Under the pieces are notes generated by a model, which was given only the letters and a program-made list of their open reading frames with translations, made no database searches and was not told the DNA's origin. Positions 20,633-24,798 of a stretch of DNA of 64,000 nt are shown in pieces. Made by a program: the position numbers and the translations under genes. This DNA comes from a virus (lineage: Duplodnaviria; Caudoviricetes), in the IMG/VR virus record IMGVR_UViG_2706795742_000001, positions 11,168 through 75,167 of that record, one strand, 5' to 3'. The number at the start of each line of letters is the position of its first letter. Position 1 is the stretch's first letter.

Positions 20633-21016
20633 ATGCCTGTCGGTATTTCCAATTACCTGTCCAATAAGATTCTCGATCATGTGTGCCGCAATACCGCATA
20701 CACCCCACCGGCCACCGTTTACGCGCGAATTCATACCGGGCAACCGGGCGCGGCGGGCACGTCAAATGGCAGTTCGATTACTACACGAATTGCAACCACG
20801 TTCGCCGCCGCTGCTGCTGGTCAAATTGCCATGAGCAATACGCCTGAATTCACGCTTTCCGGTAATGAAACAATTACTCATGTTTCATTCTGGGACGCTG
20901 CTACAGGCGGTAACTTTCTCTGGTCCAGCCAGGCGACTACAGCCAAGAGCGGCGGAAATGGCGACATTATCCGAATCTCTACGAATACGCTGAGTCTCGG
21001 ACCAATCGCTTCGTAG
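20633..21016 (+). CDS. small minor tail protein
   Basis: 127 aa; LSNKILDH...YARIHTGQPG...FWDAATGGNFL motif common in actinophage tail modules; AAGGAG RBS. Confidence 0.75.
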   Translation: MPVGISNYLSNKILDHVCRNTAYTPPATVYARIHTGQPGAAGTSNGSSITTRIATTFAAAAAGQIAMSNTPEFTLSGNETITHVSFWDAATGGNFLWSSQATTAKSGGNGDIIRISTNTLSLGPIAS

Positions 21017-21027
21017 AGCCGAATATA

Positions 21028-21066
21028 GACTTAGCACCCCTTTACCTCGTGAAGGGGTGCTAAGTC
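21028..21066. terminator. 15-bp hairpin between tail and lysis modules
   Basis: gacttagcacccctt ... aaggggtgctaagtc. Confidence 0.7.
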
Positions 21067-21092
21067 GCATGAACTAACGATAGGATGAGCGC

Positions 21093-21794
21093 ATGAGCAC
21101 CGTACTCGACTCGGGGAGCTTTGTGTCTCCCGCAGCAATTAAACAGGCTGGTCACGCTGGCAGTTTCGGTTATCTGAGCACTTCTCGGCCCGGCACCAAT
21201 TTCTCTGGTAAGCCGATCAAGAAGTCTTGGGTTGACGAAATGAATAAACTCGGCCTGACTGTTATTTCGTGCTGGCAGTTTGGAAAGAATGCAACTGCTG
21301 ATTGGCGCAAGGGATTCATGGGCGGTGTTGCCGACGCAAATGCAGCTCTCACCAAGCATAAAGAATTGGGCGGCGATCCCTCCGCTCCTATTTTCTTTGC
21401 CATTGATGACGATGTGACGCTTGCCACCTTCAATGGTCCAGTTTCCGAATATCTCAAGGGTGCGGCTAGTATTCTTGGTGTAGATCGTGTCGGCGTTTAT
21501 GGCAGCATTCGCGTTGTCGAATGGGCGGTCGAAGACGAGCTTATCGGAAAGACTCACGACGGGTCAGGACGTTATTACGGCTGGCAGACTAAGGCGTGGT
21601 CTCAGGGAATTTCTAAGCACGCTTGCGTATATCAGCGGATCGTGGATACCGCGTCGAATCCCGGCCCAATCGTTGGCGGTAGCCGGGTCGATGTTAACGA
21701 CGTGCTCACTGACGATTATGGGCAGTGGGGATATTCTCGTGACGGAGTTGACTGGGACGCTGTAATGCACCAATTTATGGGAACTCTCGATTAA
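21093..21794 (+). CDS. lysin A, DUF1906/Rv2525c-like glycoside hydrolase domain (stand-alone)
   Basis: GYLSTSRPG...WQFGK...PIFFAIDDD...GVYGS...WQT.AWS...DVN pattern of GH25-like DUF1906. Confidence 0.88.
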   Translation: MSTVLDSGSFVSPAAIKQAGHAGSFGYLSTSRPGTNFSGKPIKKSWVDEMNKLGLTVISCWQFGKNATADWRKGFMGGVADANAALTKHKELGGDPSAPIFFAIDDDVTLATFNGPVSEYLKGAASILGVDRVGVYGSIRVVEWAVEDELIGKTHDGSGRYYGWQTKAWSQGISKHACVYQRIVDTASNPGPIVGGSRVDVNDVLTDDYGQWGYSRDGVDWDAVMHQFMGTLD

Positions 21795-21804
21795 GGAGAA
21801 TGCT

Positions 21805-22170
21805 ATGAAATTCATGCAATTCGTACTGGACTCGGATGGTCCAGATAAAATTGCTGAAACCGAAAAGATCGTGCGAGATAATCTTCATGCCAGCCTTGCT
21901 GCTGACGATGATCCCAGTAATGACGATCATCCGATTTCTGTTTCGTACAAGGCGGGGGTAGATTCTCTCGGCCGATCTGGAACTTATGTAATCGGTGAGG
22001 TTGAGGCAGAGCCTGCACCTTATCCAGAAGTTTCCCGTGAGGATTGGGAAATTCCGGGCGCGGAGAAAGATAAGGTCGTTGACTACCCGGCTGTCGCGGC
22101 TGGCACTGATTATGACAGTGTCGACGATCCCGATTACTTGGAGCATATGCTCGGAAAGGTTGTAGGATAA
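21805..22170 (+). CDS. acidic hypothetical protein in lysis cassette
   Basis: AAGGAG RBS, 121 aa, D/E-rich. Confidence 0.75.
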   Translation: MKFMQFVLDSDGPDKIAETEKIVRDNLHASLAADDDPSNDDHPISVSYKAGVDSLGRSGTYVIGEVEAEPAPYPEVSREDWEIPGAEKDKVVDYPAVAAGTDYDSVDDPDYLEHMLGKVVG

Positions 22171-22826
22171 TGGCATTCGTCAATGGCCCTCAGATGATGA
22201 GGGATATTGCAACTATGTGCAATCAGCGCTATGGCATTAATATTGTCTATGCGCCCGGTTGGGAGACTCGTGGAAATGGTCAGTCGTGGCCCGCTGGTGG
22301 TCCTAAAGGTTTTATTGACCATCACACCGCTGGTGGCAATAACATTTACCTTGACCAGAACCTTATTTCCGGGATTCCAGGACTCTCTGGCCCTCTATGT
22401 AACTTCGCGGGGCTTTACGACGGAGACCTAGCAGTGGTTGCCGCATATCCGGCTAATCATGCTGGCGCTTCCGGTGGCTGGGATACCGCACCGCTTCCCA
22501 ACACCAGCATGTTTAATCGTGAGGTTCTGGGTATTGAAATGCAGTACCGAGGCACTGAGCCCATGAGTCCTGCGCAATATCGGACCATGTGTGCAGTTAA
22601 CCGTTGCGCTGCAATTGTTCTTGGCTGGAAGAACATGAACGTCATTAAGACGCACAATGGAACTTCCATTCAGGGCAAATGGGACCCCGGTTACGCGCCC
22701 GGTAAAACCTACGACATTAACAAGATTCGTAGTGACGCAACCGCTCTTGACCCTAATGGCTCAGCTTCGGAAGACCCGAAGATTTTCGACGCAATTATGA
22801 CTCAGCTTATGGGAACGAGGGACTAA
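22170..22826 (+). CDS. lysin A, N-acetylmuramoyl-L-alanine amidase (Amidase_2) domain (stand-alone)
   Basis: HHTAG, ANHAG, LGIEM, H...KWDPG zinc-amidase motifs; TAATG coupling. Confidence 0.9.
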   Translation: MAFVNGPQMMRDIATMCNQRYGINIVYAPGWETRGNGQSWPAGGPKGFIDHHTAGGNNIYLDQNLISGIPGLSGPLCNFAGLYDGDLAVVAAYPANHAGASGGWDTAPLPNTSMFNREVLGIEMQYRGTEPMSPAQYRTMCAVNRCAAIVLGWKNMNVIKTHNGTSIQGKWDPGYAPGKTYDINKIRSDATALDPNGSASEDPKIFDAIMTQLMGTRD

Positions 22827-22828
22827 GG

Positions 22829-23095
22829 GTGTCAGAGACTGGTCAAAGAGCAATTATCCGGGCAACCGGAGACGTTGCTCAGCCGAAACTCGAAGTTGCT
22901 GTATTTGACTTCGACAACAATGAGTATGTAACAGAATGGGTTTCCCTGCCTGCTTTTAAGGCAGAGCTGACTATGGAGTCTGGCTGCATTACTACAGCTA
23001 GTGCTGAAATCTTCGTAGAGAAGCTGGAAAACCTCAGTGCGGTACTTGATACCGTTACTGTGATTACACCAGAAGAAAACACCGAAGGAGAATAA
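22829..23095 (+). CDS. acidic hypothetical protein in lysis cassette
   Basis: GTG start 2 nt after amidase stop, 88 aa, E-rich. Confidence 0.6.
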   Translation: MSETGQRAIIRATGDVAQPKLEVAVFDFDNNEYVTEWVSLPAFKAELTMESGCITTASAEIFVEKLENLSAVLDTVTVITPEENTEGE

Positions 23096-23099
23096 GATC

Positions 23100-23468
23100 A
23101 TGGCAACCGCCAGTGACGTACAGGGGCAGTTTATGGGTACCAACAGCAAGAGCAAGGCTGGCAATTTCGGGTGGGTCGGTCTCGCGCCTCAGCCCGATAA
23201 TGAGGACCGGCGAATCTCGCAGTTCCGCGTGATTCATAAGTCGGCGGGCGGCGCGGACGTTGACCGGCAGAGCGTCGTTGAGGCGCTGGGCACCCTGGTA
23301 TTTGAGCAGACGCTCCGAATCAAGGCTGTTACCAGCTACGACGAGGCCAAGGCGCGCGCCGTAGACGCAAAGCGCGGCGAAACCGTACTTGGACACGCGG
23401 CGATTGCAGCGGGGATGAGTATGGAAAACAACAAGCTGCTGCGTGAAATCGTCAGCAAGATTAAGTGA
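23100..23468 (+). CDS. protein resembling the C-terminal domain of actinophage lysin A
   Basis: DVQGQFMG...GWVGL...RQSVVEALG recalls the QLxG...GWxQL...TLVDALA segment of LysA C-termini (recognition from memory). Confidence 0.55.
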   Translation: MATASDVQGQFMGTNSKSKAGNFGWVGLAPQPDNEDRRISQFRVIHKSAGGADVDRQSVVEALGTLVFEQTLRIKAVTSYDEAKARAVDAKRGETVLGHAAIAAGMSMENNKLLREIVSKIK

Positions 23469-23478
23469 GGAAATGTTT

Positions 23479-23925
23479 ATGACCACGAATACACCCGACA
23501 CTCGGGGTCCGGTTAACATCTTCAATATCCGGTCGTTCAATGACCTGATCGCAATGCTGTATGTCATTATCCCGTTCGCGCAGGCCGCGCTAGTCGGGTA
23601 CGGTGTTGCCGACCAGAATCAGGCGCTGGTTATTGCAGGTTTTGCTGGTGCCCTGTTGCAGCTTGTGCTCACTTTTGCTCGCACACAGGAGTTTGCACGA
23701 AAGGCAATTTACACTATCCTGCTGGGCGTGAACGCCGTTCTGGTTATTTACCGGGTTATTGATCCGGAATTCCTTAACCAGTGGCTTCCGCTTATTAACA
23801 TTCTCCTTATTGGCGCACCCGCCGCGGTCGCTGTTCAGAATGTTAATACCTCCGGTGATGAGATTTATTCTCGCGCCGGTGCCGGTAGCTACCGCTACGA
23901 TCCTGACAAGGGAATCACCGGATAA
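23479..23925 (+). CDS. holin-like multi-pass membrane protein
   Basis: About four hydrophobic segments; GAGG RBS 8 nt upstream of ATG 23479 (ORF track start 23443). Confidence 0.7.
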   Translation: MTTNTPDTRGPVNIFNIRSFNDLIAMLYVIIPFAQAALVGYGVADQNQALVIAGFAGALLQLVLTFARTQEFARKAIYTILLGVNAVLVIYRVIDPEFLNQWLPLINILLIGAPAAVAVQNVNTSGDEIYSRAGAGSYRYDPDKGITG

Positions 23926-24464
23926 TGAGCACTACAGAGTCGTCGTACGGCATTTTGTCCCTTTGCACTGGGGTTGGTGCATTGGACATTGGCGTACGGC
24001 GTTCTCTGCAAAAGCTACAAGTTGAATCTCACCTTGTAGCTTTTGCTGAGAACGATAAGGACTGCTGCCTGGTTCTTGAGCGCCATTACCCCGAAATTCC
24101 AAACATCGGAGACTTGACACAGTTCTCTGATTGGGAGAATTTTAGGGATAGCGTTAAGATCATCACAGCCGGTTTCCCCTGTCAGCCATTTAGTCTGGCT
24201 GGGGCCAGGAAGGGTATAAGTGATGAGCGGTATCTTTGGCCGTTTATTGAACAGGCGATTCGCGCAATTCGACCGCAGTACATTTTCCTGGAAAATGTTG
24301 CGGGCTTCCGGTCGCAGGGGTTTAGCGAAGTCACAGCCTCTCTGGCCTCCAACGGGTATGATTTACGGTGGCACAGCGTACGAGCTTCTGATATTGGCGC
24401 GCCCCACAAGCGAGATAGAGTTTTCATCGTTGCCCGACCTGCTGCCGACTCCGGTAGCGAGTGA
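23925..24464 (+). CDS. DNA (cytosine-5) methyltransferase, N-terminal subunit
   Basis: Motif I LCTGVG, IV AGFPCQPFS, VI FLENVAG, VIII PHKRDRVF. Confidence 0.9.
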   Translation: MSTTESSYGILSLCTGVGALDIGVRRSLQKLQVESHLVAFAENDKDCCLVLERHYPEIPNIGDLTQFSDWENFRDSVKIITAGFPCQPFSLAGARKGISDERYLWPFIEQAIRAIRPQYIFLENVAGFRSQGFSEVTASLASNGYDLRWHSVRASDIGAPHKRDRVFIVARPAADSGSE

Positions 24465-24798
24465 CGGGCGCGGCTCGCGCGGGTGGACGCCTGGTGGCAC
24501 CCTTAATATCTCAAATTTTCCATTCCATTTGCTTCGTAATTGGAATGAGTACCTACCGGCGATAGAACGCTGGGAATCGGTAACGGGCATGAAGGCTCCC
24601 CATCCTCAGTATGAGGATGGAAATGGACACCGCCAAACTTCCCCTGTATTCGTTGAATGGATCATGGGAATGCAGCAAGGTTATGTCACTGAAACTGACG
24701 GAATTTCTGAGCTGGCTAAAACCAGAATACTTGGGAACAGTGTCGTTTCATCCGCAGCTACCGAGGCATATGACCGTTGCCTTGAGGATTGGATTTGA
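24430..24798 (+). CDS. DNA (cytosine-5) methyltransferase, C-terminal subunit (overlapping frame)
   Basis: LLPTP...EWIMG (IX)...ILGNSV (X); frame open from 24220; TTG 24430 is a guessed start. Confidence 0.75.
   Translation: MPDLLPTPVASDGRGSRGWTPGGTLNISNFPFHLLRNWNEYLPAIERWESVTGMKAPHPQYEDGNGHRQTSPVFVEWIMGMQQGYVTETDGISELAKTRILGNSVVSSAATEAYDRCLEDWI

Follow-up and report, generated by a model that had tools for sequence, protein, structure and literature searches.

Why should two lysis enzymes of unrelated fold end in the same short peptide, and why should this peptide recur at the start of a small basic protein encoded in the same gene cluster? The question is raised by a 64,000-nucleotide stretch of a Caudoviricetes genome (positions 11,168 to 75,167 of the IMG/VR record IMGVR_UViG_2706795742_000001; hereafter the window), in which a DUF1906 glycosidase, an Amidase_2 amidase, a stand-alone C-terminal domain (CTD) and a holin are encoded as separate open reading frames (ORFs) between positions 21093 and 23925, all on the plus strand. 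The cassette is of the split LysA type of Gordonia/mycolata phages: over positions 21000-24000 it matches Gordonia phage GordTnk2 with 99.8% and GordDuk1 with 96% identity, and the layout of the four ORFs is found in both of these phages and in Jumbo, Camerico and GMA3. The shared terminal peptide, here called the tag, is a real and strongly conserved feature which is very probably functional, and the reading that we favour is that it docks several enzymes on one CTD module.

The tag on two unrelated enzymes

The first of the two enzymes (21093-21794; 233 amino acids) is a DUF1906/Rv2525c_GlyHyd-like glycosidase that lacks a binding domain, matches PF08924 over residues 15-192 (E 1.3e-34; 120.5 bits versus a gathering cut-off of 27.2), belongs with phrog_13480 (endolysin) and is annotated as endolysin in GordTnk2 (gp22). 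The second (22170-22826; 218 amino acids), equally without a binding domain, is an N-acetylmuramoyl-L-alanine amidase of the Amidase_2 family, which matches PF01510 (E 7.8e-9; 36.4 bits versus a cut-off of 26) and phrog_880 (endolysin) and is the LysA of GordTnk2 (gp24). The glycosidase ends in WDAVMHQFMGTLD (21753-21791) and the amidase in FDAIMTQLMGTRD (22785-22823), each directly followed by the stop codon, so that the common pattern is Q(F/L)MGTxD and stop. The CTD protein (23100-23468; 122 amino acids) starts with MATASDVQGQFMGTNS, which contains QFMGT, and its head MATASDVQGQFMGT (23100-23141) has a predicted helix at residues 4-12, seen in the sequence and in an AlphaFold2 (AF2) model, with the same Q-phi-phi-G core (phi, hydrophobic residue) as the tags. 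Rechecked translations reproduce exactly the three termini that a first-pass annotation of this DNA had reported, and the Pfam assignments bear out its statement that the two catalytic folds are unrelated.

The tag is an 11-residue, amphipathic and acidic predicted helix of the form W-D-x-phi-phi-x-Q-phi-M-G, preceded by a flexible linker and followed by one to four residues and the stop. Counted from the Gln, Trp at -6 (80%, and otherwise always a hydrophobic residue), Leu at -2 and the hydrophobic residues at +1 and +2 make up one face of the helix, Asp is common at -7 and -4, and basic residues are absent. The CTD heads differ from this in having Ala at -6 and Val at -3. A MAFFT alignment of the amidase, the read-through linker and the CTD placed the tags of homologues on the CTD head and thereby made the likeness visible, but to judge by these positional preferences the tag does not simply duplicate the head.

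A scan of the 403 stop-to-stop ORFs of at least 60 amino acids in the window for Q[FLMIV]xG within the last eight residues found four such ends, with about 1.5 expected, and the upstream W/F..phi pattern occurred in the two lysins only. Neither LysB nor the other lysis-region proteins of the window carry the tag; the two further ORFs that end in Q-phi-x-G are at chance level. The match goes beyond chance because the tag is conserved in relatives, in line with the earlier view that the likeness is unlikely to be accidental.

Co-occurrence of tag and CTD across cassettes

Besides the window, 20 related cassettes from Gordonia, Rhodococcus, Nocardia and Tsukamurella phages and from metagenomes were read, giving 21 CTD-bearing cassettes (L numbers are our locus designations). 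Each of them holds the CTD once, either alone or fused to one enzyme. It stands alone in the window, Jumbo, Camerico, GMA3, L010, L011, L012, L018 and L022, and is fused to an M23 peptidase domain in Woes, Monty, TIN2, L019 and L020, to GH19 in JonJames, to Amidase_2 in Perlina, Nocardia phage P69 and L027, and to an unnamed domain in L029, while a partial CTD follows a DUF4185 domain in L021. The hydrolases of these cassettes that lack a CTD all end in W/F-x-x-phi-x-x-Q-phi-phi-G, one to four further residues and a stop (21 of 21 cassettes, the motif being degenerate in L021). Two or three unrelated single-domain enzymes can be tagged within one cassette, and the tagged folds are three without relationship to each other: DUF1906, Amidase_2 and Peptidase_M15_4, the last represented by two proteins (JonJames gp49 and one in L029). 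For the DUF1906 enzyme alone, the tag is conserved in Jumbo, Camerico, GMA3, Perlina, P69, L011, L012, L019, L020, L022 and L027.

The tag was found neither in lysins that unite all their domains with the CTD in one chain (ReqiDocB7, Braxoaddie) nor in cassettes that use other binding domains in place of this CTD (Bibwit, Kampe, Archimedes, Shagrat, P19). The 120 homologues of the amidase in the database comprise 42 short, stand-alone proteins and 78 long ones. A strict tag, defined as Q[FLMIVW]xG within the last ten residues, terminates 34 of the 42 stand-alone proteins, and of the remaining eight most have a degenerate W/F..phi..G; the long homologues carry other C-terminal domains, most of them without the tag. 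Conservation in homologues had been named beforehand as a point on which the idea of a multi-subunit lysin could fail, and the tag proved to be conserved on three unrelated folds, throughout the 21 cassettes and always in company of the CTD.

Likeness of the tags at the protein level

Within a genome, the tags of glycosidase and amidase share on average 5.7 of 11 residues, compared with 3.7 between genomes and 3.6-3.9 among orthologous tags, and the observed within-genome likeness was reached by none of 100,000 shuffles of genome pairing. Codon identity at residues that both tags share is 0.48 within and 0.44 between genomes, and the tag copies differ at synonymous sites. Because paralogous tags are thus closer to each other than orthologous ones without an excess of identical codons, the likeness appears to be selected at the protein level, and the co-variation of the tags within a genome points to selection by a common partner rather than to DNA repeats. 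In L021, the otherwise conserved Gln is lost together from the CTD head and both tags. Gene conversion between the tags was considered and rejected, as it should have raised the share of identical codons within genomes, which is not seen.

The DNA pattern CA[A/G][T/C]TTATGGG[A/T]AC that had been proposed for the three copies is correct in the window, where the longest exact run common to two tag or head copies is 8-10 nucleotides. The accompanying observation that all copies are in frame holds for this phage (genome frames 0, 0, 0) but not for the five other cassettes checked (Jumbo, Camerico, GMA3, L011 and L012), and the shared genome frame, being peculiar to this lineage, is incidental for this reason. 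Fusion of the products by read-through or frameshifting was likewise rejected, since the amidase-to-CTD frame of the window contains five stops and the glycosidase-to-amidase frame many, and also because the shared frame is not seen in the relatives checked.

The CTD and its probable separate synthesis in fused relatives

The stand-alone CTD was assigned by tblastn, by its match to phrog_6985 (residues 171-274 of a 278-amino-acid endolysin) and by profile search. The tblastn search located it in 105 records of phages that infect Gordonia, Rhodococcus, Tsukamurella and Nocardia, at one place per genome, and in most of these records it is the C-terminal third of a protein named 'lysin A, protease M23 domain'. 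A word-index search for longer CTD-bearing proteins gave no matches, and the fused forms came from an exhaustive profile search, in which the domain occurs alone (108-126 amino acids) or C-terminal to Amidase_2, GH19, M23 or an unnamed domain. Its start follows the consensus (S/A)-x-(D/E)-V-x-x-Q-phi-x-G, then G-W-x-x-L-A-P-Q-P-D, with Gln10 present in at least 90% of the sequences and Gly13 invariant.

The CTD has an isoelectric point (pI) of 9.4, while no other protein of the window cassette is basic, and this charge as well as its position in the fused homologues suggest that it binds the cell wall. Its AF2 model (mean predicted local distance difference test, pLDDT, 80) has five helices, the first of which comprises residues 4-12. 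No relatives were found in Pfam or by sequence and profile searches of the Protein Data Bank (PDB), and comparison of the fold with the PDB by Foldseek and VIA-align gave only generic helical-hairpin matches with Z of 5.5 or less; the C-terminal helical hairpin (residues 78-122) aligns in this weak range (Z<=5.5) to helical-hairpin and coiled-coil chains including histidine-kinase dimerisation domains, the only hint that CTDs might associate with each other. Public records name the stand-alone CTD (GordTnk2 gp26, Jumbo gp32, GMA3 Orf26) 'peptidase' or 'lysin A, peptidase domain', a name that is carried over from the M23-CTD fusions to a protein without a peptidase domain.

The fused genes carry a further feature that bears on the state of the CTD. 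In all 12 of those inspected (L003:3494-4327, L013:3003-3848, L014:3027-3827, L019:5621-6457, L020:5633-6433, L007:3693-4712, L008:3699-4628, L015:2958-3830, L016:2928-3917, L017:2484-3827, L027:2410-3348 and L029:5001-5990), an in-frame ATG or GTG is located exactly where the stand-alone CTD starts, and in ten of them a Shine-Dalgarno (SD) core of 5-6 nucleotides (GGAGG, AGGAGG or AAGGAG) precedes it by 4-8 nucleotides within the Gly-rich linker, against a background of 3.2% of internal in-frame ATG/GTG codons with such a site in these loci. An internal start before the binding domain is a hallmark of known heteromeric endolysins (PMC9430671, PMC4777826, PMC7098653). The coincidence of SD core and start codon with the beginning of the domain suggests that free CTD is probably made in every phage of the group, be it from its own gene or from a predicted internal start.

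Proposed docking of the enzymes on a shared CTD

The reading of these observations that we prefer, with a probability of about 0.55, is that the tag is a docking element for the CTD or a CTD oligomer, by which several enzymes would be held on one module. The lysin would then consist of separate parts, namely two catalytic subunits without a binding domain, the glycosidase and the amidase, and the small basic CTD protein. The tag helix of each catalytic subunit would dock on the CTD or its oligomer, where it might fill or mimic the place of the first helix of the CTD itself, or lie beside that place, and unrelated hydrolases would in this way share one targeting or assembly module. We infer each of the three steps, the binding of the tag to the CTD, the oligomerisation of the CTD and its attachment to the wall. 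The hydrophobic face of the tag (-6, -2, +1, +2) and its acidic residues, set beside a CTD that is the sole basic protein of the cassette, speak for docking. A multi-subunit lysin of this kind had been suggested from the window sequence; the conservation of the tag along with the CTD, the co-variation of the tags and the probable presence of free CTD fit that suggestion; the tag, however, is distinct from the CTD start.

A linked-chain AF2 prediction, in which linker and tag, 92 read-through residues (stops replaced by Gly) and the CTD were modelled as one chain from the in-frame read-through 22740-23465, reached a mean pLDDT of 52 and a predicted template modelling score of 0.29, with a pLDDT of about 56 for the tag helix, and the CTD itself lost confidence, so that the model speaks neither for nor against docking. 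Several observations weigh against docking. The tags are no closer to the CTD head of their own genome than to foreign heads (3.5 versus 3.4 of 11 residues). The CTD already possesses a head helix, and docking of a tag would presuppose a further, vacant site on it; it has no known fold or family, and position and charge are all that speaks for cell-wall binding. The cassettes, moreover, are not phylogenetically independent.

The data fit equally well a rule of one motif per polypeptide, which a third partner could explain, and this is the main rival to docking, albeit an unlikely one. Tag and CTD head would here be the same signal, read by a holin or other membrane protein of the cassette, by the acidic 121-amino-acid protein encoded between glycosidase and amidase (21805-22170) or by a host factor that holds or releases the lysis enzymes, and binding of the enzymes to the CTD would not be required. 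The observations can indeed be put as a rule that each lysin polypeptide has exactly one Q-phi-phi-G helix; the tags co-vary with each other and not with the CTD head of their genome, the holin is always encoded downstream of the CTD, and the acidic protein ends in a related phi-x-x-H-phi-x-x-K helix. On the other hand, the motif was never seen in cassettes without this CTD family, although those have holins too, and it is missing from LysB and the other lysis-region proteins of the window. Perlina, P69 and JonJames have tags but no acidic protein, and an acidic tag without basic residues would be a poor fit for anionic membranes.

Rather improbable, in our view, is a regulatory role, in which the tag binds the CTD, competes with its head helix and controls CTD oligomerisation or keeps the enzymes inactive until lysis. 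The evidence for a shared partner applies equally to this case, the hydrophobic face of the tag is larger than that of the head (Trp at -6, Leu at -2), as a competitor would need, and the probable internal starts of the fused relatives have a parallel in CTP1L and CD27L, the activity of which is regulated by the additional product (PMC4777826, PMC4110038). Set against this, the present data do not separate recruitment from regulation, and the CTD fold is without a match.

Poorly supported and very unlikely is, finally, the view of the tags as scars of gene fission or as repeats in the DNA at which in-frame deletions or exchanges of modules are favoured, the peptide itself being without a role. 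In its favour, it is established that these phages split their LysA genes and shuffle the domains (PMC5559632, PMC3314691), foreign ORFs enter the slot that separates amidase and CTD, and the repeats have their 8-10 nucleotides in common. Against it, amino acids rather than bases are conserved, the tag is kept at 33-60% overall identity next to non-conserved linkers and has features that CTD heads lack, the stop always follows one to four residues past the Gly, and Payne and Hatfull report no short conserved sequences between LysA domains (PMC3314691). The variant raised in the first-pass annotation, that deletion between near-identical repeats fuses either catalytic domain to the CTD, is not supported, given the differing synonymous sites and the natural fused form of this amidase family (P0065/L027), which joins its domains via a linker and a head-type motif and is not a tag/head chimera.

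If docking on the CTD is real, it would explain how enzymes devoid of a binding domain reach the wall and why the split of the lysin is stable. More tentatively, one may envisage a plug-in code in mycolata phages, in which hydrolases ending in W-D-x-phi-phi-x-Q-phi-M-G dock on a small basic hub that is always free, tags and hub co-evolving; such a code would amount to a mix-and-match multi-enzyme lysin, a cohesin-dockerin-like principle not yet described for endolysins.

Relation to known multimeric lysins

In PlyC of the streptococcal phage C1, the catalytic chain PlyCA and the binding octamer PlyCB are encoded by two genes separated by the lil ORF, and the two assemble by way of a helical docking element in PlyCA. 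The split lysin of the window resembles PlyC in that catalytic and, as far as the presumed role of the CTD goes, binding functions reside on different gene products of one cassette, in that an unrelated ORF can lie between the genes (a homing-endonuclease-type gene in GMA3, the amidase-CTD slot recalling lil), and in the proposed assembly via a helical docking element of the catalytic chain, which is here predicted from sequence. It differs from PlyC in showing no sequence or fold relation to it, in that at least three unrelated single-domain enzymes share a short C-terminal tag and the CTD also occurs fused to an enzyme, and in that its complex is a predicted one.

With the internal-start endolysins (CTP1L, CD27L, Lys170, LysIME-EF1 and LysP7951; PMC9430671, PMC4777826, PMC7098653), the fused relatives share the SD site and in-frame start before the CTD, and they would likewise yield a full-length enzyme and a free binding domain. 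The CTD of the window, in contrast, has its own gene, and whereas the known subunits associate cell-wall binding domain to cell-wall binding domain, the extra subunits here have no such domain but an 11-residue helix only.

That lysin A is split over several genes in Gordonia phages has been known for years, its significance being stated as unknown in the passages searched of two reports (Pope et al. 2017, PMC5559632; Pollenz et al. 2022, PMC9671378), and GordTnk2, Jumbo, GMA3, Woes and Monty belong to the phage set of the former. The window conforms to these in having its LysA functions spread over several genes; in the same passages no reference was found to a terminal peptide common to the enzymes or to a separately encoded C-terminal domain as their common partner, and no description of the tag was found in the literature searched. 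In its logic only, the proposed arrangement would be like the cohesin-dockerin system of cellulosomes, where a short docking module at the C-terminus brings diverse hydrolases together on one scaffold that is itself non-catalytic and also provides the targeting. The tag, unlike a dockerin, has 11 rather than about 70 residues, calcium binding being a property of the latter, there are no repeated receptor modules, and Pfam finds no sequence relation between tag and dockerin.

The cassette probably represents a variant of heteromeric endolysin not previously described, the docking step of which is predicted from the gene products. Should this be true, PlyC and the internal-start isoforms would be joined by a third type of multimeric endolysin architecture, which would explain the separate genes, and it it would provide a natural 11-residue handle to attach chosen hydrolases to a targeting module, with a possible use in enzyme design against mycolic-acid bacteria such as those behind foaming in wastewater plants.

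Neighbouring genes and further observations

In the annotations of GordTnk2 and GordDuk1, the genes follow one another as endolysin, hypothetical protein, endolysin (LysA), hypothetical protein, 'peptidase, similar to lysin A' and holin. The first hypothetical protein corresponds in the window to the acidic 121-amino-acid protein (pI 4.1, net charge -18; phrog_18568, of unknown function), the ORF of which overlaps the amidase start (ATGA). Wherever the stand-alone amidase is of this family, a gene for the acidic protein lies upstream of it, either next to it or separated by a single small ORF; cassettes with an amidase of another family lack it. Pfam and an Atlas look-up gave no lead on it, and a role as chaperone or inhibitor of the amidase is conceivable. 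Its end, YLEHMLGKVVG, is a conserved phi-x-x-H-phi-x-x-K helix of faintly tag-like appearance.

The slot between amidase and CTD is variable. It is occupied in the window by an acidic ORF of 88 amino acids (22829-23095; phrog_22476, unknown), in GMA3 by an HNH endonuclease (L009:5204-5686) and in Jumbo (L004:3765-4001) and L012 (L012:4811-5017) by unrelated small ORFs, and it is empty in Camerico and L011; the 88-amino-acid ORF is probably outside the core system. The holin (23479-23925; Pfam Phage_holin_9, E 3.6e-9; phrog_565 holin; GordTnk2 gp27) is the last gene of the lysin block.

In the metagenomic cassette L021, the partial CTD belongs to a DUF4185 enzyme of 474 amino acids (L021:5639-7063), from which it is separated by a Pro-rich linker. 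DUF4185 proteins are D-arabinan-degrading enzymes of mycobacteria, and the L021 protein may be an arabinogalactan-cutting lysis enzyme. In the window, a DNA methyltransferase is encoded 3' of the holin in two overlapping frames (23925-24464 and 24220-24798), which are two genes in the GordTnk2 annotation.

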